From the IMG/VR virus record IMGVR_UViG_3300025117_000034: a DNA stretch of 64,000 nt; one strand, given 5' to 3'. How positions within the stretch are numbered: the first letter of the stretch is position 1; each line of letters starts with the position of its first letter. This document shows positions 5,087 through 49,932 of this stretch, piece after piece. A model generated the notes under the pieces. The model saw only the letters and a program-made list of their open reading frames with translations, did not search any database and had not been told where the DNA came from. Both the position numbers and the translations under genes were made by a program. This DNA is from a virus. Taxonomy: Duplodnaviria; Heunggongvirae; Uroviricota; Caudoviricetes.

Positions 5087-5317
5087 TGTGTTTCCTCCTG
5101 GGCTATGCCCTATTCCTTTGTCCACCATCCAGCTCTGTTCTCTTCAACCAAACCCACGGTAACTGTCTGACCTGTAACATCACATTGACCTGTCTGTAGA
5201 TTCAATGTTGCACTCGGCTTGCCACATGGGCACATATCCAAACCAGAGTGATTATAAGACCACCTGCTGTACTTGTCAACAGCGCACTCCTTAGTTGAGT
5301 GACTACACACTAACAAC

Positions 5318-7086: not shown

Positions 7087-7551
7087 TCAAGACTTTAACC
7101 AGTGACGTATGGCATTATCAGAGACACCATATTTTCTACCTGTACCACAATATCCTAGTAATTCTACATCATTAAGCAGCATGGCAACAGAAGGTCTTTC
7201 AGCCCTTCTTTGTGATAGTCCCCAGCATTTAACGCTGCAGTACTTTTTGCTATCAATACCACAAACTGAACCACATACAGGACAAATAATAGTTTCTCTT
7301 CTAACCGGATTATGAAGTGCGCAGTGTTGGGAACTGCTGAGAACTTCTAGGTTGGCTCTAGAGTTATTTAGCTTATCTCCATCCTTGTGGTGTACGTGCT
7401 CATCTTTTCTAAGCCATCTCCCCAAGTACATCGAGGCAGCATGCCTATGATAGTACACTTTACCGTTACTAGACAAAGGGTGACCACTGTCCATAAAGTA
7501 CATGTACCCAGTACCAGTATCTAACCTTTGTTTTATGTCTTTATAATACAT
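7087..7551 (-). CDS. HNH homing endonuclease
   Basis: HHKDGDKLNNSRANLEVLSSSQHCALH is an HNH motif. Zn-binding CPVCG...C.VKC. Sits between two tRNA genes. Confidence 0.75.
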   Translation of the reverse strand: MYYKDIKQRLDTGTGYMYFMDSGHPLSSNGKVYYHRHAASMYLGRWLRKDEHVHHKDGDKLNNSRANLEVLSSSQHCALHNPVRRETIICPVCGSVCGIDSKKYCSVKCWGLSQRRAERPSVAMLLNDVELLGYCGTGRKYGVSDNAIRHWLKS

Positions 7552-7587: not shown

Positions 7588-7663
7588 TGGTGGGCAAAGA
7601 CAGAATTGAACTGTCATTGACGACTTATGAGGACGCTGTTCTAAACCATTGAACTATTTGCCC
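7588..7663 (-). tRNA. tRNA-Met (anticodon CAT)
   Basis: RC: GGGCAAA-TA-GTTC-AATGGTTTA-GAAC-A-GCGTC-CTCATAA-GTCGT-CAAT-GACAG-TTCAATT-CTGTC-TTTGCCC-A-CCA. Full cloverleaf with one T-T mismatch in the anticodon stem. Confidence 0.65.
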
Positions 7664-7722
7664 TTAGAGAGGGGGCTGACCCTCGCTGGAGCCAGCCCCC
7701 AACACGTTACTACCTTACAGAA

Positions 7723-8226
7723 CTAGCCCAGGCAGATACCAGCCTTGACCGACTTGCGCACTTCAATCTCATGACCATTGAACACCGCCGGAAGGTCACC
7801 AACCTCGTCCACTTCCTCGCCATTCAGAATGATCGAGAACGAATCAACACCCTGCGAGGCAATGTCAGCCTTCAAGCGCGGCAGCACTTCGTCCGTCGGA
7901 AGAACGGTGATCTCACGGCCAAACAGCGTGTACGAAGTGCGGCTCGCAGCACCCGACAGATCACCCATGCTCATCTCCGCACCAGCCTTGACCGACTTGC
8001 GCACTTCGATGCTGTGGCCATTGAAGATAGCGGGCATATCCCCAACCTCATCAACTTCCTCGCCGTTCAGAACGATGCTGAAGCTGTCAACACCCGCAGC
8101 GGCAATGTCAGCCTTCAGGCGCGGCAGGACCTCATCCGACGGCTGCACCGTAACGTTGCGACCAAACAGCACATAGGTCGTCGTGTTCGTCGTGCCAGCC
8201 AGGTCCTGCATGTTCATGTTCGCCAT
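7723..8226 (-). CDS. tandem beta-grasp (ThiS/MoaD/ubiquitin-like) domain protein, 2 repeats each ending ...VRKSVKAG
   Basis: Two ~80-aa repeats (Y.LFGR..TV...DEVLPRLKADIA..GVDSFSI.LNGEEVDEVGD.PA.FNGH.IEVRKSVKAG). The beta-hairpin, helix, then LNGEEV...IEV...V.AG layout is like ThiS/MoaD. GAGGAG RBS. Confidence 0.5.
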   Translation of the reverse strand: MANMNMQDLAGTTNTTTYVLFGRNVTVQPSDEVLPRLKADIAAAGVDSFSIVLNGEEVDEVGDMPAIFNGHSIEVRKSVKAGAEMSMGDLSGAASRTSYTLFGREITVLPTDEVLPRLKADIASQGVDSFSIILNGEEVDEVGDLPAVFNGHEIEVRKSVKAGICLG

Positions 8227-8356
8227 GTAAATCTCTCCTCGTTACAACTAAGTTCTGCCACCAAGGGTAGCAGGTTTGAATCCTACATCTATAGCTTGTA
8301 ATGAACAGTTATATGTTACGTGCCATCCTACCCTCCCCCAGGACAGATACTACATA

Positions 8357-17003: not shown

Positions 17004-17135
17004 TTAGTTTACCAGCTCTTCAACAATGTTGTTACCCACTTTCCAGTAATAAGTCCAGCCACCCCCTTTGCGTGACCGTGCATACATGAACCATCCGAAT
17101 ACCTCTCCGAACTTTTTATAGATAGGTGAGCTCAT
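17004..17135 (-). CDS. small ORF (~43 aa), ATGA-coupled to the repeat-protein gene
   Basis: Own translation MSSPIYKKFGEVFGWFMYARSRKGGGWTYYWKVGNNIVEELVN. Its ATG overlaps the TGA of 17132..18157. Confidence 0.3.
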   Translation of the reverse strand: MSSPIYKKFGEVFGWFMYARSRKGGGWTYYWKVGNNIVEELVN

Positions 17136-18157
17136 ACCTTTATCTCCTTGATCACTCTGCATTTACTGACCCGCACTTTTCCTTCCTGGATGGCAAGGAT
17201 ATCCTTCATATCAACTTCGCATGCCAAGTAACAATCAATGAACTCCCTGTCCCAGTAGTGCAGATGGGACAGGTGTATTCCTGAAGCACAGGATTTCTTT
17301 GGGTCCCTGTCAGGATTTTTAACCCTTACCACCTCTCCTACATGGTAAATGAAGTCAATGTTATACTGAGAGTAGAAACCCCTTAGACTCTTGTAAACTG
17401 ATTTAAACAGGATCACCTTCCCATTGACTGGGAAGTGTAGAGTCTGAGCATACAGGGAGTGTTGTTTATTATTACCCCCTGTGATATCCTGTGCTAAGTT
17501 ACCAACTATAAAGTGTGACTCTCCGGTACGAGAATTGCCATACACCCAAGCATTGCCTGACACCTGAGCATCGCCATACACCCGAGAATTGCCATACACC
17601 CAAGCATTGCCTGACACCTGAGCATTGCCTGACACCTGAGCATCGCCATACACCCGAGAATTGCCATACACCCAAGCATTGCCTGACACCCAAGCATTGC
17701 CTGACACCCGAGCATTGCCTGACACCTGAGCATTGCCATACACCCAAGCATTGCCTGACACCTGAGCATTGCCTGACACCTGAGCATTGCCTGACACCTG
17801 AGCATCACCATACACCCGAGCATTGCCATACACCCGAGCATCACCATACACCCGAGCATCACCATACACCCAAGCATTGCCTGACACCTGAGCATTGCCT
17901 GACACCTGAGCATCGCCTGACACCCGAGCATCGCCTGACACCCGAGCATCGCCTGACACCCGAGCATCACCATACACCCGAGCATCACCATACACCCAAG
18001 CATCACCATACACCCAAGCATTGCCCTCATGGCTAAGGTTGGACTCTTTCTCTACAAAGCCACCTTTGTCTCCAGCTTTGACATTGGAGAAGTCCTTAAG
18101 GGCTATTACCCTGTGCAGACCACTAACTTCCTTTTTACCTAGTTTGTACTTTTCCAT
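17132..18157 (-). CDS. hexapeptide-repeat (left-handed beta-helix-like) protein with ~30 tandem G(D/N)A(R/Q/W)V(S/Y) repeats
   Basis: 341 aa. The central 180 aa are perfect hexad repeats (VYGDARVSGNAQVSGNAWVYG...). Non-repetitive N- and C-terminal domains. Confidence 0.7.
   Translation of the reverse strand: MEKYKLGKKEVSGLHRVIALKDFSNVKAGDKGGFVEKESNLSHEGNAWVYGDAWVYGDARVYGDARVSGDARVSGDARVSGDAQVSGNAQVSGNAWVYGDARVYGDARVYGNARVYGDAQVSGNAQVSGNAQVSGNAWVYGNAQVSGNARVSGNAWVSGNAWVYGNSRVYGDAQVSGNAQVSGNAWVYGNSRVYGDAQVSGNAWVYGNSRTGESHFIVGNLAQDITGGNNKQHSLYAQTLHFPVNGKVILFKSVYKSLRGFYSQYNIDFIYHVGEVVRVKNPDRDPKKSCASGIHLSHLHYWDREFIDCYLACEVDMKDILAIQEGKVRVSKCRVIKEIKV
17500..18040. repeat. ~30 tandem copies of an 18-nt coding repeat (gcattgcctgacacc[tc][ga]a variants)
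   Basis: Seen directly in the sequence. It encodes the hexad repeats and generates the spurious alt-frame ORFs 17499..18036. Confidence 0.85.
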
Positions 18158-23609: not shown

Positions 23610-23794
23610 TGCTTAGTCACCTCCTTTCACTTTTCCTCCCACTTGACCTCTGGGTTAGTTGTTGTCCTTCCCACTTAGGCGGGAGGGGTACAGCACTGTT
23701 TCCCACTGGCTTACCATAAGGAGTATTACTGGTATAACAGTGCTTACATAAGTTCCACTACGTAGTTGAACTTATGACAGTGGGAGGGAATTGA

Positions 23795-23893
23795 TTACTT
23801 GTTGTAATACGTGCACGACCATTCACCAATAGTGCAGCCACTGTCTTCCCAGTACTCACAATACCTGCACTCACTGCAGTAATAGATAGTCAC
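23795..23893 (-). CDS. candidate 32-aa Cys-rich peptide (GTG start)
   Basis: AAGGAGG, 6 nt, then GTG ACT... gives VTIYYCSECRYCEYWEDSGCTIGEWSCTYYNK. Last minus-strand ORF before the strand switch. Confidence 0.25.
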   Translation of the reverse strand: MTIYYCSECRYCEYWEDSGCTIGEWSCTYYNK

Positions 23894-23957
23894 TGCGGGC
23901 CTCCTTGAAATCAAGTTTCACATTTTTAACAATACACCTCTAAGAGAGGTGAGCAAA

Positions 23958-24407
23958 ATGAGTGACATAAGTATCCACCTAAACTTCGTTCCCATAACAA
24001 CAGGTAAATCATATGGAAGAAATGGTAAGTACACATTCCTCAGCAAGGCTGGTCAGGAATGTTCTAAGGCTATCAAAGATGCTTGGTGTTCTGCTGGGTC
24101 ACCTATGATGCTTGGTGTACCTAGACTTAAGGTTTCAATAGAGTACGGAATAGTTAGCAATGCTAGAAGAGACCTAGACAATATGTGCAAGCTACTTATT
24201 GATACTCTGGTAAAGTGCGGGTGCATAAAGGATGATTCCTATATTGATGATCTCCACCTTGTGAAGAAGAACAGCTCTACCTCCTATACAGATATAGTTA
24301 TCTCTGAGTTACTAGATGAAGAGTTCAATGATATAGCAGATAACTTAGAAGCAGAGCTTAGTACACTTGAACCTATAAGTGTATCCTTTGAAGAGCTTAT
24401 AGACTAG
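23958..24407 (+). CDS. rusA: RusA-family Holliday-junction resolvase
   Basis: RRDLDNMCKLLIDTLVKCGCIKDDSYIDDLHLVK matches the RusA core RRDLDNLLKALLDAL...DDS. GAGAGGTGAG RBS. Only plus-strand gene in the window. Confidence 0.8.
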   Translation: MSDISIHLNFVPITTGKSYGRNGKYTFLSKAGQECSKAIKDAWCSAGSPMMLGVPRLKVSIEYGIVSNARRDLDNMCKLLIDTLVKCGCIKDDSYIDDLHLVKKNSSTSYTDIVISELLDEEFNDIADNLEAELSTLEPISVSFEELID

Positions 24408-24675
24408 TCAACCCCACCAACCATTCCCAACAGTACAACCACTACCACAAGGCCATACCCTACAACAATGGCCCATTGAATCCTACGAAGTACTCTGCTC
24501 TTTGCTGCCGTCCTTGGCGTGAGTATATACATTGTACCCTCCTTGTTAGGTTTCCCAGCTAACTCTATAAGGCACGGTCAACAGTGCCAGGCTATCACCC
24601 CTGCCTGCTACCGTGCCCTAAGAATTACTGAGCCAAATTATTTTTTGAGTGCTCTGTTTCCGTGACAGTGATACT

Positions 24676-24715
24676 AAACAGAAAGGGGCACAAGGTCAAC
24701 TGCCCCCTGTGCCCC
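24676..24715 (-). terminator. rho-independent terminator for the minus-strand moron gene
   Basis: GGGGCACA...TGTGCCCC 8-bp GC stem, followed on the minus strand by TTTCTGTTT. Confidence 0.55.
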
Positions 24716-24749
24716 TCTGCTTACTCCTTGCTGCTGTGCTACTTACTGA

Positions 24750-25271
24750 TTACTTCTTGGCGATGCGCTGCTCCTTGACAACCTCGACCTGACCCTTGGC
24801 CATCAGGGCATTGGCGATCTTCGCACCAAAGGCCTTCTTCAGGCCCGCTGCCGTGGCCGTGACGGCAACGATACCATTGTGCGCGTCCTCGACCTTGACT
24901 TCGCCCGTCGGCTTCACAGCGTCACTGTAGAGCCCTTCCACGCCCGTCAGCTCCTGCAGCTTCTGTGCCGTGGTGAAGGCCGCTTCCCGCAGCTGTGCCG
25001 TGTCCGTGAGCTTCACCTGCTCGACCTCTTCCACCGGCAGAAGCCCAGCGTCCACAATGGCCTGCAGCGTCTCGCTCTGCACAGCCATGGCATCCTTGAC
25101 CGCATCCCGCGCAGCCGTCACCGCCCGCCGCTGATCGGCCAGAAGGGCCCGCAGCTCCCGATGGGACTTCTGCTTCAACTGCGCCAGCAACGCCGAGTCC
25201 TTGACACTGGGCTCACCTGCGACAAGCTCAAAGCCTGCCGGTACAACACTGTTCAACAATGCATTAGCCAT
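24750..25271 (-). CDS. hypothetical Ala/Glu/Lys/Val-rich protein on a GC-rich island (moron)
   Basis: The ORF is clearly more GC-rich than its flanks. Start moved to MANALL (AAGGGG RBS). Terminator downstream and hairpins upstream. Confidence 0.5.
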   Translation of the reverse strand: MANALLNSVVPAGFELVAGEPSVKDSALLAQLKQKSHRELRALLADQRRAVTAARDAVKDAMAVQSETLQAIVDAGLLPVEEVEQVKLTDTAQLREAAFTTAQKLQELTGVEGLYSDAVKPTGEVKVEDAHNGIVAVTATAAGLKKAFGAKIANALMAKGQVEVVKEQRIAKK

Positions 25272-25351
25272 GATGCTAACCCCTTGTACTACATGGGTGC
25301 TACCCCGCCCCGCCAATGGCAGTTATATTGGGATAGGTCACCCATTGCTAC

Positions 25352-25389
25352 AGATACAACAATGCCGTCAATGGTTGCGGATACATTGA
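25352..25389. repeat. perfect 14-bp inverted repeat (caatgccgtcaatg/cattgacggcattg) plus adjacent GC hairpin 25419..25447
   Basis: Seen directly. Lies at the boundary between the GC-rich island and an AT-rich gene-poor stretch. Confidence 0.6.
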
Positions 25390-25872
25390 CGGCATTGTAT
25401 ACTTTGTTTTAATTGGTTGGGCAAAGTTGAACCCCGCCGGACATTGATTGGCGGGGTTACATGGTAAGCATAACTCTAACCTTGTGAGGGGTTTCTATTC
25501 CCTCTGACTTCCTCTGACACCATAAGTATACCATAGGGGGGGACCCGCCCGACCGAGCTCCTTCCCAATCACCGAACTCCACCAATATCCAGGCCACAAA
25601 GCCAAACTCAACTATCCTAGCGAACCCCAACCCACCCAATCACACTATACAAAATATGTACATAGCCCTACAAAAAATGCACAGTCCTACCCAGCAAACC
25701 CTCCCAGTTATAACATAACTCTATAAGAATATACCTGGTAAGTTTAGTTACCAGTGTACACCCTAGATGTTCAATTATTGAACGATGGATCTCTAAGTAC
25801 ATCAAGGTAGGAACTTGTATAGCAGTACTTATTAAATGTTCTTACTAGTCTTTACCCTACAAATTAGGTATC

Positions 25873-26028
25873 ACTATGAGAGATATATATGAGAGATATA
25901 CATGTCATCCACAGGTGTTCCGTATACTGCATCTGCATAGTCAGCTATACAATCCATATCCTCTTTATTTACACCCAAGTTTATAGCTGTCTTTAGTGCT
26001 AGATCTATTCTTTCCTGTCGTGTCATAG
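25873..26028 (-). CDS. small ORF (~49 aa) with KEDM motif, possibly decayed
   Basis: Own translation MTRQERIDLALKTAINLGVNKEDMDCIADYADAVYGTPVDDM... An adjacent frame-shifted paralogous segment (LGIDKENMDSVIETLRECGI) suggests decay. Confidence 0.25.
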
Positions 26029-26090
26029 TTACTAGATACCACATTCCCTCAAAGTTTCTATTACAGAATCCATATTCTCTTTATCTATAC

Positions 26091-26270
26091 CTAGGAATCT
26101 ATCCATTGTACATCCCTTGGATCAAATGAATACACATAATTAAGTTCTTTACATAGATCTATAGCTCTTCTTATTAGGATATGCATATCTTCCTTATGAG
26201 TTCCATAGTCTTGTTGTTCAATTCTAATAACTTTAGTTAGGTTAACAGTTCTTGTAGTCACTATACTCAT
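26091..26270 (-). CDS. small ORF (~59 aa) with KEDM motif, ATGA-coupled
   Basis: Own translation MSIVTTRTVNLTKVIRIEQQDYGTHKEDMHILIRRAIDLCKELNYVYSFDPRDVQWIDS. Its ATG overlaps the TGA of 26267..26545. Coordinates are approximate (+/-2). Confidence 0.35.
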   Translation of the reverse strand: MSIVTTRTVNLTKVIRIEQQDYGTHKEDMHILIRRAIDLCKELNYVYSFDPRDVQWIDS

Positions 26271-27334: not shown

Positions 27335-27487
27335 CTATCTGTCCTCTCCCTCTCTGTTCCATCCAGTGTCTGGATAAGCTGGATAGAAGTTTATGAAGTT
27401 ATCTACATGTATTATCATGTTCTCTTTATGTACATTGAAGTCTCTGAATGCTACAATTAGATCCTCCATGAATTGCCTGTTTATCAT
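27335..27487 (-). CDS. small ORF (~50 aa), VHKENM family, ATGA-coupled
   Basis: Own translation MINRQFMEDLIVAFRDFNVHKENMIIHVDNFINFYPAYPDTGWNREGEDR. Confidence 0.35.
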   Translation of the reverse strand: MINRQFMEDLIVAFRDFNVHKENMIIHVDNFINFYPAYPDTGWNREGEDR

Positions 27488-27678
27488 ATAGCTACCTGGC
27501 CCTCTTCATCATCCCACACAATACGAACTCTACGTGGGTTAACAATAAAGGAGCTACGTGCCTGAGCTTGGGCTATGCTTATGTCTATATGTTCCTTGTT
27601 CACTCCCCATCTCTGACATTGCTCTATGAGTTCTTCCCCTTTAATTACATAATAGGTATCCATAAGACTAGCCATCAA
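27484..27678 (-). CDS. hypothetical protein
   Basis: ORF track, 64 aa. Confidence 0.45.
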   Translation of the reverse strand: MMASLMDTYYVIKGEELIEQCQRWGVNKEHIDISIAQAQARSSFIVNPRRVRIVWDDEEGQVAI

Positions 27679-29369: not shown

Positions 29370-29780
29370 TTACCTCAACTGCTTAGTGTACTTACTCATA
29401 TCCTCTTTGTTCACGTACTCATTAAGCCTTATAATCCTATACTTTATATCCTCACCAACAATCTTATTGATGAACACACGCTGCATTGTGTGACCATTCC
29501 ATATATTGAGAAAGCTACCCTGCTGACCAAGGTAAGTATCATCAGACCCATACCTATAGTCCATCCAGAAGACCTGACCAGTAGTACGATCCATAGGCTG
29601 GACAGATACAACATCTTCCAACCAACTATTCCAGAACTCCTGGCTGTATCTTCTGTTAGTATTTGGTCCTAGAGCTTGCGTAAGCATGGATACTCCGACA
29701 AAAGCGGCTTCTGTAACTCTCTCAACAGTATACTCTATATAGTTGTTTACTGTACTTATAACGTTAGATACAATGGACAT
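29370..29780 (-). CDS. hypothetical protein carrying a major-capsid-protein (gp23-like) N-terminal fragment
   Basis: EDVVSVQPMDRTTGQVFWMDYRYG is near-identical to DDIVSVQPMDRKTGQVFWLDYQYE in the MCP gene 48451..49932. C-terminal RLNEYVNKEDMSKY. Confidence 0.5.
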   Translation of the reverse strand: MSIVSNVISTVNNYIEYTVERVTEAAFVGVSMLTQALGPNTNRRYSQEFWNSWLEDVVSVQPMDRTTGQVFWMDYRYGSDDTYLGQQGSFLNIWNGHTMQRVFINKIVGEDIKYRIIRLNEYVNKEDMSKYTKQLR

Positions 29781-31580: not shown

Positions 31581-32405
31581 TTAAGGAACCTGAATCATTG
31601 CTGTAGTGTTGTTTCCTAGAACCGTGGTAGGCATTGCACCATTCCATCTCTCAATCCAACGCAGCTGAAGAACCTGTGGGCTCTGAGCCAGGGCCTGGGC
31701 AGTAAGACGGATAGCCTCAGCCTTACCCTTGGCTTCAGCAATGGCCTGATCAGCTTCAAACCTAACCTGCGCTAGCTTGTTCTCTGCTGCTAGAGCATTC
31801 TGCTCTGCTGTAACCTTGGCCTCAACGGCAGCATTGAAGCTGGGAGAGAAGTCGAAGTTAACAATGTTAAGCTCGTCCACTACAATACCCATGGGGGCAA
31901 GCTTCTCACGCAGTAGAACCTTGATAGCCTCGCGCACCTCTTCACGCTTGGTAACCAGTTCCTCTGCTGTATAACGTGCTGTCACTGACTTCACTGATTC
32001 CTGCAGGGCAGGGTCAATCATACGATCCTTGAAGTCAACACCGAACTGCTGGTAGATAGTTGCCACTGCCTCAGGCTTAATGTTAAAGTTAAGAGCCACA
32101 ACACTATGCACTATCTGAAGATCCTTGGATGCTGCAGAGGCTTCAGTCTGCTTCTTCTGAACACGAACGTCAGCAATGATAACTTCCTGCACGAACGGGA
32201 TCTTAATGTATAGACCTTCACCCTTTACGTCTGAGGACACTGCACCGAACGTAGTAGTAACACCACGCTCACCAGCCCCTACAATACCGAACGTACCACT
32301 GATAGCACATAGAACTAGAACAACCAACACACCACCTACAACAACCTTCCAATTAACAAAGTCCATTGCCTCTCCTTTTATTACCCTCTTGCGGGGTGAT
32401 ATCAT
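31581..32405 (-). CDS. SPFH/band-7 (prohibitin/HflC/stomatin-like) domain protein
   Basis: N-terminal TM, then GLYIKIPFVQEV...TARYTAEELVTKREEV...LAPMGIVVDELNIVNFDFS...AEQNA...EA.GKAEA, a typical SPFH domain with a coiled coil. Confidence 0.85.
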   Translation of the reverse strand: MISPRKRVIKGEAMDFVNWKVVVGGVLVVLVLCAISGTFGIVGAGERGVTTTFGAVSSDVKGEGLYIKIPFVQEVIIADVRVQKKQTEASAASKDLQIVHSVVALNFNIKPEAVATIYQQFGVDFKDRMIDPALQESVKSVTARYTAEELVTKREEVREAIKVLLREKLAPMGIVVDELNIVNFDFSPSFNAAVEAKVTAEQNALAAENKLAQVRFEADQAIAEAKGKAEAIRLTAQALAQSPQVLQLRWIERWNGAMPTTVLGNNTTAMIQVP

Positions 32406-35529: not shown

Positions 35530-35597
35530 GTCCGTCTCCTTTCCTCTATGATTATATTATACTACAGTTGTTTATAAATGTCAAGCTGAATTACTAA

Positions 35598-35957: not shown

Positions 35958-36151
35958 GCTTCAACTCCTGAAAATTTTTTAGGTGCTCTTATTCCGTCAC
36001 TGTGATACTAAACAGGATTTTGTATCACGTATTTAAAAGACTTATGACTTCAGTTTTCTAAATCTAAATTGTCTGTTTCCGTCACTGTGATATCTAAATT
36101 TAATAGGTACTAGCCTTAGATGTCACGCAGTAGTGTATAAGAAAATAGTTA

Positions 36152-37454: not shown

Positions 37455-38065
37455 GTGGCTCTGTACCCCTCCATGATTACCTCTAGTATGTTCTCATCCT
37501 TTGTAGCCATGAACAGACCACGATCTGTTCTCTCGTTGTCCCGCTGTTCACAATCATGTACCCAGTAATAACTTGGGTCATTAACTATAACGTTGTACAA
37601 CGTTATAGTTAATGCGCAACCACCGAGCTTTAGGTTAACCGAGTTGGTGTCATGAGCTACCAATAGCCTAGGTAGTTCTGGCTTAGCTATGATAGCTTTC
37701 CACTCCTCCTGGGTTGGAGCAAGGCGATGGTCGCTGTCCAGGAACACAACATCAAAGGGTGGGTTGATACGTATGGCATCAGCACCCTTACCATGGAAGA
37801 TCTCATGCCCACCAATAACCTTTATTGCCTGTGGCTGAAAGTTAATGTCAGCGAACATAGCTCTAAGGATATGCCCCTTGTTGGCTGCATCAACGAACAC
37901 AGAGCTCGACACACCCTTCCACGAGCCAGACTCCAATGATGATAGCCATGGCCCACCAACAGGGTTGCTCAACACGTAGTGCATCCACTCTAAATGCCTC
38001 GTGTCAATTGACATACCAATGTCGAAGTCTGTCACACCTAGCTCAGCAAAGTTAATGTTACTCAT
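37442..38065 (-). CDS. methyltransferase-like protein (DVVFLDSDH motif)
   Basis: FDVVFLDSDH resembles class I O-MTase DFVFIDADH. Confidence 0.4.
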   Translation of the reverse strand: MSNINFAELGVTDFDIGMSIDTRHLEWMHYVLSNPVGGPWLSSLESGSWKGVSSSVFVDAANKGHILRAMFADINFQPQAIKVIGGHEIFHGKGADAIRINPPFDVVFLDSDHRLAPTQEEWKAIIAKPELPRLLVAHDTNSVNLKLGGCALTITLYNVIVNDPSYYWVHDCEQRDNERTDRGLFMATKDENILEVIMEGYRATCFA

Positions 38066-48450: not shown

Positions 48451-49932
48451 CTACACCCACCGGATGCTGCTCTTCACGAAGAAGCCGTCGTTCAGCATTG
48501 TCTGGGCATTCTTTGTGATCACGCCACGTTCATATTCCATGTTCCCTACTGGATATGGATCAGTGACCATGATTGGAATGAATGGAAGCCATGCATAACC
48601 GGCTTCGATCCAGCTGTTACCCTTTGCGCCCATGACATACTCATTGTCACCATACGCTAGGTTACGGTAGATGTCCCAACGATCCATCAACCGACCAACC
48701 TTGTGTGGACCTGTAGGTGGCTGCATGCCGTTGTTCTCAACCTTGAACATTGTGTTAGGCATTGACATGATCAGGTTGCAAACTTCGTTACCTGCACCCA
48801 GCCATGTGCCCTGGATACGCCGTGTGGTCTTGTAGATCTGTGAACTTTCGCGCTGTAGATGCTTCACGAAGTCCTGGGCGCGTTCCATTTCGCTGATGAA
48901 CACTGGGTTAGCTGCTAGGAAGCGGTCTGCACCGGCTAGAGTTGATGCAGGAGCCTGTGCCATAATGTCGTCCAGAACTAGCTGGTCGATTTCGGCGCGG
49001 AGCTCACCGGCGAGAATTGCGATTGCTTCGTCGTCAATGCTCTTGCCATAGTGCTGCTCTAGTTCGAATGCTGAGTCAAGCAACCAATTCATTGCTAGCT
49101 GACGCTTCTGTGCTACCACGACTGCCTCACGGATTGCGAGCTTCACGCGGCCAGTGTTGGCTGGGCGACTTTCGAAGTCGAACTCATAGCTTGCAACTGT
49201 TAGTGCATTGGTCTGAGGAACGAACGCAACACCAACGTTGAAGGTACCAATTGCCTGGGTGTTGTCATGAACGATTGTTACTGTGTCAACGCCATCAGTG
49301 ATGGTGAATGAACTAGCTGCTGCAGTGCCAGTGAAGGTACGAACAGCTGCACCATCCCAGTAACCAACAGTAACAGTAGCCCCAGTCTTGAATGGGAAAT
49401 GCTCGAAGCTGTGTTCATAGTTGGTACCAATTGCACCAAAGGCTGCAATAGGCTCGCCCTGAACGATGTCTGAGCTGAAGTACTTATAGGCATTACCATT
49501 GTTACGGAGACCAGTAACCTTCTGTGCATGGAACATTGTGTCGCCTGGGCGAATGATACCCTGGCCTGTTTCATACTGGTAGTCTAGCCAGAAGACCTGA
49601 CCAGTCTTACGATCCATAGGCTGAACGCTAACAATGTCGTCTAGGATTGAGCTTGGGATCAGTGCGCTGATCAGCTCGAAACCATGACGAATGTAGGTGC
49701 CTAGGTCTGAAGTGGTTAGCCCTTCAGTCTTTAGGTAACCGCGTTTCTTTGCAATCCCTTCGAAGTAAGCCTGGGTATTGGTGAGGCACTGCCCTAGAAC
49801 TGCTTCAACGTTCTCAGGTAGGTTGCGGCCATGAGCTGTCTTGTAGAAGCTCTGGACTGCTTCCAGGTGTTTCTTGAATTTGCTGTTGGCAGCTTTGCAA
49901 CCCTGCTCAACTAGCTGTGTGTGATTTGCCAT
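48451..49932 (-). CDS. major capsid protein, T4 gp23-like (HK97 fold)
   Basis: LDDIVSVQPMDRKTGQVFWLDYQY matches T4 gp23 FDICGVQPMNSPTGQVFALRAVYG. VAQKRQLAMNWLLDSAFELE matches IEAKSRQLKAAYSIELAQDL. Promoter-like motif about 110 nt upstream. Confidence 0.85.
   Translation of the reverse strand: MANHTQLVEQGCKAANSKFKKHLEAVQSFYKTAHGRNLPENVEAVLGQCLTNTQAYFEGIAKKRGYLKTEGLTTSDLGTYIRHGFELISALIPSSILDDIVSVQPMDRKTGQVFWLDYQYETGQGIIRPGDTMFHAQKVTGLRNNGNAYKYFSSDIVQGEPIAAFGAIGTNYEHSFEHFPFKTGATVTVGYWDGAAVRTFTGTAAASSFTITDGVDTVTIVHDNTQAIGTFNVGVAFVPQTNALTVASYEFDFESRPANTGRVKLAIREAVVVAQKRQLAMNWLLDSAFELEQHYGKSIDDEAIAILAGELRAEIDQLVLDDIMAQAPASTLAGADRFLAANPVFISEMERAQDFVKHLQRESSQIYKTTRRIQGTWLGAGNEVCNLIMSMPNTMFKVENNGMQPPTGPHKVGRLMDRWDIYRNLAYGDNEYVMGAKGNSWIEAGYAWLPFIPIMVTDPYPVGNMEYERGVITKNAQTMLNDGFFVKSSIRWV

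Follow-up and report, generated by a model that had tools for sequence, protein, structure and literature searches.

A stretch of 64,000 nucleotides from the virus record IMGVR_UViG_3300025117_000034, referred to below as the window, contains a GC-rich gene at 24750..25271 on the minus strand, close to a plus-strand gene for a RusA-family Holliday-junction resolvase. We call the GC-rich gene the orphan gene. The virus is a gp23-type (T4-like) myovirus of ~139 kb from groundwater, and the context of the locus is hyperplastic, with ~60 small open reading frames (ORFs) without Pfam match surrounding it. The locus is best explained as a patchwork with a horizontally acquired orphan-gene cassette, moron-like or PeSL-like, in a hyperplastic region of a T4-like phage, and we put the probability of this reading at about 0.6. 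The phenomenon is a familiar one; the example is unusually clean and the phage lineage undescribed. An earlier note on this DNA had taken the gene for a moron, that is, for horizontally acquired and independently transcribed cargo.

Composition and borders of the GC-rich segment

The features of the segment and its flanks are as follows.

24640..24681, minus strand: native repeated phage motif, 86% identical to 35974-36015 over 42 nucleotides.
24671..24699, minus strand: strong sigma70-like promoter TTGACC-17-TAGTAT, 8th best of the minus-strand window positions in a position-weight scan.
24684..24716, minus strand: predicted intrinsic terminator of the orphan gene, with an 11-12-bp G+C-rich stem and a 9-nucleotide loop.
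24750..25271, minus strand: orphan gene for a protein of 173 amino acids, analysed for composition, coding frame and homologs.
25272..25873, minus strand: leader of ~600 nucleotides without a credible ORF, of intermediate GC and CpG content up to about 25620.
25359-25373 / 25384-25398, no strand assigned: perfect inverted repeat of 15 bp with a 10-nucleotide loop.
25394..25424, minus strand: weak promoter-like site TTGCCC-19-TACAAT, rank 46, immediately after the CCCCGCC hairpin.
25430..25458, minus strand: hairpin AACCCCGCC/GGCGGGGTT (the CCCCGCC hairpin), 9 bp with an 11-nucleotide loop and a poor U-tail.
25874..26044, minus strand: ORF of 56 amino acids from a small paralog family (GVNKEDM motif), codon score +0.24, not called on the metagenome contigs L001 and L002 (see below).

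The GC content of the orphan ORF was 0.625, compared with a window mean of 0.457, making it the most GC-rich 522-nucleotide stretch in the 64 kb (z 4.3; second peak 0.58). A sliding profile peaked at 0.66 across 24900-25200 with flanks at 0.35-0.48, and heterogeneity around the locus was strong, from 0.30 to 0.66 inside 2 kb. The earlier note had set the gene against a background of ~42% GC; its GC richness was borne out, at 62.5% the window maximum, but the background is about 46%, and values of 39-42% are confined to the adjacent 26-30 kb. By codon position, the GC content of the ORF was 0.71/0.40/0.77. When the orphan protein was re-encoded 5000 times with phage codon usage, the simulated genes had a GC content of 0.517±0.012 and a GC content at third codon positions (GC3) of 0.453±0.035. 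The observed GC3 of 0.775 (z 9.3) was reached in none of the 5000. As amino-acid composition alone gives a GC content of 0.517, about half of the excess is synonymous. The note had named uniform composition as the outcome that would speak against its proposal; when computed, composition was not uniform, in GC or in GC3.

The codon-usage comparison that the note had suggested also revealed a clear deviation. Threonine was encoded by ACG in 9 of 10 codons (90%, compared with 7% in the phage and 0% in its capsid gene) and arginine by CGG in 6 of 7 (86%, compared with 9%), while GCG usage was 28% compared with 5%. The codons favoured by the orphan gene are those shunned by the phage and its capsid gene. 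The ORF contained 44 CpG dinucleotides, against 12.5±6.1 per 522 nucleotides in the window (3.5 times background), and its rho(CG) was 0.90 against 0.47. The CpG-dense run had sharp edges at 24761 and 25239, with intermediate density to about 25620. Horizontal acquisition classically leaves such a sharp island, visible here in GC, GC3, CpG and codon choice. The deviation in all four therefore agrees with the origin proposed in the earlier note, and we regard a foreign origin of the orphan gene as well supported.

On the left, the segment is bounded by the terminator. Its core, GGGGCACA/TGTGCCCC, extends to the full stem and is followed by UUUCUGUUU; the region folded with a z score of -3.0, and 1 of 200 shuffles was as good. 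The GC-rich terminator hairpin noted earlier was thus found again, with a longer stem, and it is well supported that the orphan gene ends in its own predicted intrinsic terminator. The -35 box of the promoter at 24671..24699 lies inside the loop of this terminator, forming a composite terminator/promoter. Right after the terminator stem begins the repeated motif, whose 16-nucleotide core TATCACWGTSACGGAA has exactly three copies in the window, all of them between genes on the minus strand (24658-24673, 35992-36007 and 36077-36092). Possible roles for this motif are those of a promoter, a leader or a protein-binding site specific to the phage. The sequence at 24640-24681 is the phage's own and fixes the left edge of the island at about 24682.

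On the right, the intermediate GC and CpG content of the leader indicates that it probably belongs to the acquired segment up to about 25620. Its minus-strand transcript would be strongly G/U-rich at 25500-25700. An Rfam search of the ~600 nucleotides gave no match, and the leader showed no excess folding apart from two hairpins. The first of these, the inverted repeat at 25359..25398, exceeds in length every other hairpin-type inverted repeat of the window; the earlier note had correctly called it perfect but had counted 14 bp. Its tails are T-rich on the plus strand (ATACTTTGTTTTAAT) and more weakly so on the minus strand, which suggests a bidirectional terminator or insulator, with an operator as the alternative. 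The second, the CCCCGCC hairpin, was present as described. On either strand, a stretch of 141 nucleotides containing both (25330-25470) folded at a z score of about -6, which none of 200 shuffles equalled, and two of the six inverted repeats in the 64 kb with arms of at least 11 nucleotides and a spacing of at most 20 lie at this locus. Both hairpins are more readily read as insulators or terminators than as promoter elements.

The native flank on this side is marked by the 56-residue ORF, which ends in a 13-nucleotide tandem duplication (25875-25900) and is possibly a decaying copy. Small paralogs with the motif G[VI][NHD]KE[DNH][MI] were found at 25874-26100, at 27484..27678 and at ~27911, and one copy is a remnant of 24 amino acids (~26091). 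The paralog remnants and the duplication are signs of recombination and decay at the island edge.

The orphan protein and the search for relatives

A codon log-odds model was trained on 30 long genes of the phage. It gave the orphan ORF an in-frame score of +0.31. The antisense ORF at 24879..25412 on the plus strand (177 codons) scored -0.10 and had no PHROG match, and was rejected as a gene. The sequence AAGGGG precedes the orphan-gene ATG by 8 nucleotides, and the terminator starts 34 nucleotides after the stop codon. Three-base periodicity, the frame-specific codon score, the AAGGGG before the ATG and the terminator after the stop together indicate that the orphan ORF is a real gene. It is very improbable that the segment encodes no protein, and that it is a non-coding DNA or RNA element in which the 173-codon and 177-codon ORFs are by-products of stop-poor GC-rich sequence. 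There are long ORFs on both strands, no homolog, family or confident fold was found, and a 173-codon open frame was estimated to arise by chance at roughly 0.7% per frame at this composition. The strong periodicity of GC by codon position, the specificity of the codon scores for one frame and the correct placement of ribosome-binding site, ATG and terminator all argue for a gene, as do a plausibly amphipathic and helical protein sequence and the lack of any Rfam match.

The locus was followed through independent assemblies. A 139-kb groundwater metagenome contig (L002) contains the window at 100% identity, and a contig from a second sample (L001) is 99.9% identical to it. All 16 differences of L001 sit in a repeat-containing gene at 17.8-18.0 kb, and the RusA/orphan locus is invariant, being 100% identical between the two samples. 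The orphan protein was recorded exactly in 42 index blocks, and contigs of 50-200 kb were present in 22 index blocks; 23 contigs were read, from ENA, JGI and Logan assemblies of different samples made with different assemblers, and on all of them the gene has the same neighbours. These neighbours, together with the identity of the two samples across the locus, argue against an assembly artefact. The abrupt change in composition seen here would suit a chimera in which a GC-rich piece from another organism had been mis-joined to the phage; with identical junctions and neighbours on the 23 contigs, the chance of this is close to negligible.

The orphan protein contains 18.5% alanine and no cysteine or tryptophan, and has an isoelectric point of 6.8. 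A single-sequence AF2 model (pLDDT 55) predicted a mostly helical structure, with helices at residues 23-74, 91-109 and 141-158, of which the long first helix was fairly confident. Foldseek gave no match for the model in PDB at E<1. Comparison of the protein with Pfam, PHROGs, NCBIfam, PADLOC and PDB sequences returned nothing beyond noise, and tblastn against 50,697 phage records found no homolog. A word-indexed search of 5.8 billion clusters matched only the protein itself. The homology search that the earlier note had called for was extended to an exhaustive phmmer run against 1.84 billion cluster representatives, again with a self-match only, and scans of IMG/VR and GTDB genomes were likewise without a homolog. 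Judged from these searches, no sequenced genome of any kind appears to encode a detectable homolog. Among about 15 billion predicted proteins it stands alone in its family, and the codon dialect of its gene is unlike that of the phage or of typical high-GC bacteria. From genomic context only, our guess, made with low confidence, is that it is a non-essential accessory protein acting on the host cell during infection, of the host-takeover or counter-defence type.

The phage itself is known solely from near-identical metagenome contigs. Pfam matches in the window include the Gp23 major capsid protein, a T4-type portal protein (Gp20) and an S77 prohead protease. The major capsid protein (48451..49932, minus strand) was at most 27% identical to any capsid of a cultured phage and no relative was found in IMG/VR; on these grounds the virus represents a deep, essentially undescribed gp23-type lineage. 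IMG/VR was scanned with RusA, a 199-residue neighbour, the capsid protein and Band_7, in each case without a match. Phage records likewise gave nothing when the locus was compared with them by megablast. The RusA protein search produced a self-match and no close relative. Scanning metagenome contigs with a native 21-nucleotide motif yielded four chance matches only. In the 5.8 billion clusters, Band_7 retrieved bacterial homologs 60-63% identical to it and also L005, a phage-like contig that has only Band_7 in common with the window, so that no related phage was obtained. The Band_7/prohibitin gene in question (31581..32405, minus strand) is 60-63% identical to bacterial proteins including those of Candidatus Uhrbacteria/Patescibacteria and Acidobacteria, and this auxiliary gene may hint at a host or donor.

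Several observations weigh against horizontal acquisition of a cassette. No relative of the phage was found in IMG/VR, among cultured phages or in the metagenome motif scan that could show an empty site, and in a look-up with a flanking protein a variant lacking the cassette was not seen: every contig with the flanks also has the orphan gene. A further look-up, with a 77-residue neighbour, returned no record. As no donor or homolog was found, we infer the transfer from composition alone. The GC-skew comparison proposed in the earlier note showed that the coding-strand excess of G over C in the orphan gene equals that in the rest of the phage, which could reflect long residence, or selection instead of recent transfer. 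The extreme preference for G-ending codons (ACG, CGG) is unusual even among high-GC bacteria. The best sigma70-like sites upstream of the gene rank just 46 and 103 in the window. Finally, the low confidence of the protein model leaves any statement about function nearly unconstrained.

Some of these points would also fit a native gene whose GC- and CpG-rich, G-ending codons are kept by selection, acting on mRNA stability or structure, on rare-codon translation timing or on an Ala-rich helical protein. The shared G>C skew, the failure to find a donor or homolog anywhere and the positive in-frame score under the phage's own codon model are in keeping with this explanation. Amino-acid composition accounts for the rise in GC from 0.457 to 0.517, and a second GC- and CpG-rich gene at 7723..8226 means that such genes are not unique here. 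We nevertheless consider a native origin unlikely, because GC3 remains deviant (z 9.3) once amino acids are controlled, because the preferred codons are shunned by the highly expressed capsid gene, and because CpG density departs from the genome-wide depletion with edges at the ORF boundaries.

Transcription of the locus and comparison with known systems

The features on the RusA side of the locus are listed here.

23692-23744, minus strand: hairpin-forming inverted repeat AGCACTGTT/AACAGTGCT in the divergent intergenic region.
23747-23776, minus strand: 30-bp near-perfect palindrome in the divergent intergenic region.
23795..23893, minus strand: Cys-rich mini-ORF of 32 amino acids (VTIYYCSECRYCEYWEDSGCTIGEWSCTYYNK), with a GTG start 6 nucleotides after AGGAGG.
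23905..23933, plus strand: TTGAAA-17-AACAAT, the best-ranked of the sigma70-like sites preceding RusA (28th on the plus strand), a consensus match only.
23935..23951, no strand assigned: 7-bp hairpin CACCTCT-aag-AGAGGTG; the Shine-Dalgarno sequence of RusA forms its 3' arm, and read on the minus strand it resembles a terminator stem with a T-rich tail.
23958..24407, plus strand: RusA-family Holliday-junction resolvase of 149 amino acids, with a ~30-residue acidic C-terminal extension.
24404..24532, minus strand: ORF of 42 amino acids with a strong Shine-Dalgarno sequence (AAGGAGGG), called on L001 and L002.
24549..24648, plus strand: long imperfect hairpin, candidate RusA terminator, with core GGCACGGT/ACCGTGCC followed by AAATTATTTTTT; fold z score -2.75.

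The minus strand carries nearly all long ORFs of the window. On L001 and L002, gene calls covering 14.5-35.3 kb of the window placed RusA alone on the opposite strand, and its codon log-odds score was +0.28, compared with at most +0.13, and mostly negative values, for all other plus-strand ORFs. RusA is thus the sole credible plus-strand gene in the window, as the earlier note had stated. Its GC3 is 0.36, slightly AT-shifted. The note had also described the GC-rich gene as converging on RusA. The orientation is correct, but the gene that actually abuts RusA is the 42-residue ORF, which lies between the two and overlaps the RusA stop codon by 4 nucleotides. The N-terminus of its product is basic and the C-terminal half hydrophobic (WAIVVGYGLVVVVVLLGMVGGV), and no family match was found for it in Pfam or PHROGs.

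In the proposed pathway, a segment of roughly 0.6-1 kb (about 24682 to 25270-25620) would have been acquired from an unsampled high-GC source. It carries one orphan gene, for an Ala-rich, mainly helical protein of 173 residues, with its own predicted intrinsic terminator, and would have been inserted in the same orientation as the minus-strand phage genes and beside the reverse-oriented RusA. Minus-strand transcription from upstream would be attenuated by the two strong hairpins at 25359-25458, and transcription of the orphan gene would then rely on a weak promoter close by or on residual read-through. The orphan-gene transcript would end at 24684-24716, where the terminator-embedded sigma70-like promoter could restart transcription into the 42-residue membrane-peptide ORF. 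This second transcript would run antisense into RusA, making the RusA and minus-strand units convergent, overlapping and mutually insulated. Within 86 nucleotides of the orphan-gene ATG, no sigma70-like site ranked better than 332, and the T4 late promoter TATAAATA was absent on the minus strand. Of the independent transcription claimed earlier, the gene's own predicted terminator stands, but no convincing promoter for the orphan gene was found. Generic scans with promoter and terminator consensus sequences were not enriched over shuffles, and individual sites are to be read as candidates only.

A different view of the same elements is that the locus is a regulatory module around RusA, in which convergent overlapping transcription times RusA and the orphan gene is a passenger, or that the 42-residue peptide is paired with its antisense in the manner of a type I toxin-antitoxin system. 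The parts of such a module would be the 42-residue ORF mRNA against the RusA 3' untranslated region, minus-strand read-through antisense to RusA, and the hairpin at the RusA ribosome-binding site. The 42-residue ORF, with its strong Shine-Dalgarno sequence, hydrophobic tail and overlap with the RusA stop codon, suits this view, and the strong promoter at 24699..24671 faces that ORF and points at RusA. A candidate RusA terminator lies beyond the ORF, and, if it acts as such, the RusA 3' untranslated region would be antisense to the mRNA of the ORF. The hairpin at 23935-23951 spans the RusA ribosome-binding site and could mask it in longer transcripts and/or stop antisense transcription; in phage T4, early transcripts of the resolvase gene 49 likewise have their ribosome-binding site masked. 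All steps of this scheme are sequence-level inference, however, promoter- and terminator-like matches are no commoner than in shuffles, and the composition of the orphan gene is left unexplained. We therefore hold a regulatory module of this kind to be a doubtful alternative to the acquired cassette.

The acquired cassette can be compared with two known kinds of element. A moron, of the HK97 gp15 type, is an independent, horizontally transferred transcription unit (Cumby et al. 2012, PMC3594210). What the locus would share with the morons of lambdoid and temperate phages is a single extra gene with deviant GC content and its own factor-independent terminator, amid co-transcribed phage genes (PMC3594210). 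Deviant GC and an own predicted terminator were seen here in silico. No clear own promoter was found for the orphan gene, unlike in morons, and expression from a repressed prophage does not obviously apply to a T4-like virus in whose window no lysogeny genes were seen. The label used in the earlier note thus holds for GC content and terminator, but the strict sense, which includes repressed-prophage expression, does not obviously fit a T4-type virus; morons are defined as extra DNA that related phages lack, the flanking genes being adjacent there, and the orphan gene is likened to them by its composition and terminator.

PeSLs are conserved motifs of ~100 bp, present in about 50 copies per genome (Arbiol et al. 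2010, PMC2839356; Comeau et al. 2014, PMC4122927). Further marks of PeSL and ORFan cassettes are insertion, deletion or replacement at the motif among close relatives, and mini-circles (PMC2839356). Like these cassettes of T4-type phages, the locus places an orphan gene within a hyperplastic T4-like region, and on either side of the gene an intergenic G/C-rich stem-loop (GGGG...CCCC type) is combined with a sigma70-like promoter. On the 3' side (24671-24716) the -35 box lies within the stem-loop, which is a described PeSL subclass (PMC2839356), and a second composite at 25394-25458 shares the arrangement in a weaker form. In contrast to PeSLs, the stem-loop on one side is unrelated to that on the other, and neither is repeated. 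Only the 42-nucleotide promoter-proximal motif recurs, two to three times in the 64 of about 139 kb examined, and other strong promoters in the window have no stem-loops. The locus is described as working like both the moron and the PeSL systems, and we do not class it as a strict member of either.

If the acquired cassette is what it seems, the locus is a clean, datable gene import into a hyperplastic region of a deep-branching T4-like groundwater phage, one that has not yet drifted to phage base composition and in which terminator, insulating hairpins and embedded promoter are still visible. It contributes a single family of orphan proteins and a further case for the idea that shuffled orphan genes are framed by terminator/promoter composites beyond the classical T4 group too. 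It reveals no new mechanism, and its value lies mainly in annotation and in providing a candidate for accessory-gene screens. A bolder version, in which the orphan protein is an effector that arrived recently from an unsampled lineage (serving, for instance, counter-defence or host takeover) and the hairpin-rich 600-nucleotide leader and terminator-embedded promoter make up a self-insulated portable cassette, mobilised in PeSL-like fashion far from T4, strikes us as improbable.

The RusA gene itself is genuine, with its catalytic residues conserved. The protein matched Pfam PF05866 at 33.3 bits (cut-off 22.8; 8.7e-8), phrog_34 at 2e-14 and the NCBIfam RusA model. In the alignment with E. coli RusA (PDB 1Q8R, 4e-6), RRDLDNmcK and kDD align with RRDLDNlqK and lDD, so that equivalents of D70, D72, K76 and D91 are conserved. 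We take Asp70, Asp72, Lys76 and Asp91 (E. coli numbering) to be the catalytic residues, in agreement with the D70N mutant chain 2H8C. With E. coli RusA (prophage DLP12, phage 82) the phage protein shares the family match and the catalytic Asp/Asp/Lys/Asp; it differs in its low identity and in its extra acidic tail. In this T4-like genome RusA stands alone on the reverse strand; phage T4 itself relies on endonuclease VII. Upstream of RusA, the region 23610-23960 folded at a z score of -2.7 on the minus strand. It is uncertain whether the 32-residue mini-ORF is a gene; its codon score is +0.04 and it was not called on L001 or L002.

A TTATA[TA]A-like motif occurs 25-45 nucleotides upstream of structural genes starting at 49932, 46118, 54602 and 61035, and a close match, CCTTATAGAGTT, lies upstream of the 42-residue ORF (~24560-24572). 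The motif is a possible late-promoter element.

Other features of the window

A second GC-rich island (0.55) was found at 7640-8300, with 44 CpG per 522 nucleotides, equal to the orphan gene. The gene it contains (7723..8226, minus strand) encodes a protein of 167 amino acids made up of two tandem 81-residue repeats, corresponding to a 243-nucleotide DNA repeat with 72% identity. The island adjoins the sole tRNA gene, tRNA-Met (7588..7663, minus strand), and an HNH_3 endonuclease gene (7087..7551, minus strand), and may be another imported or mobile segment. On comparison, the proteins of the two islands showed no likeness. A common N-terminal targeting peptide with the capsid or second-island protein was also considered and rejected, the shared residues being just 'MAN'.

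CpG is strongly depleted across the whole window (rho(CG) 0.47) and NCG codons are shunned (GCG 5%, ACG 7%, TCG 4%); a host signature and restriction avoidance are both possibilities. Two perfect sigma70 consensus promoters (TTGACA-17-TATAAT) were found on the minus strand at 5251-5279 and 35556-35584, which implies a host with canonical sigma70 recognition.

A perfect palindrome of 36 bp (CATTAACTATAACGTTGTACAACGTTATAGTTAATG) lies in a coding region at 37579-37614. A direct repeat of 70 nucleotides with 79% identity links 29549-29618, in the small-ORF region, with 49572-49641, inside the major capsid gene. Finally, a YdcK beta-solenoid/bactofilin-like gene at 17132..18157 on the minus strand (17115..17870 on L001) contains ~25 copies of an 18-nucleotide repeat. 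It varies in length between samples, encoding 341 or 251 amino acids, and holds all single-nucleotide polymorphisms between the two samples; its product is a hypervariable protein, possibly one of host interaction.

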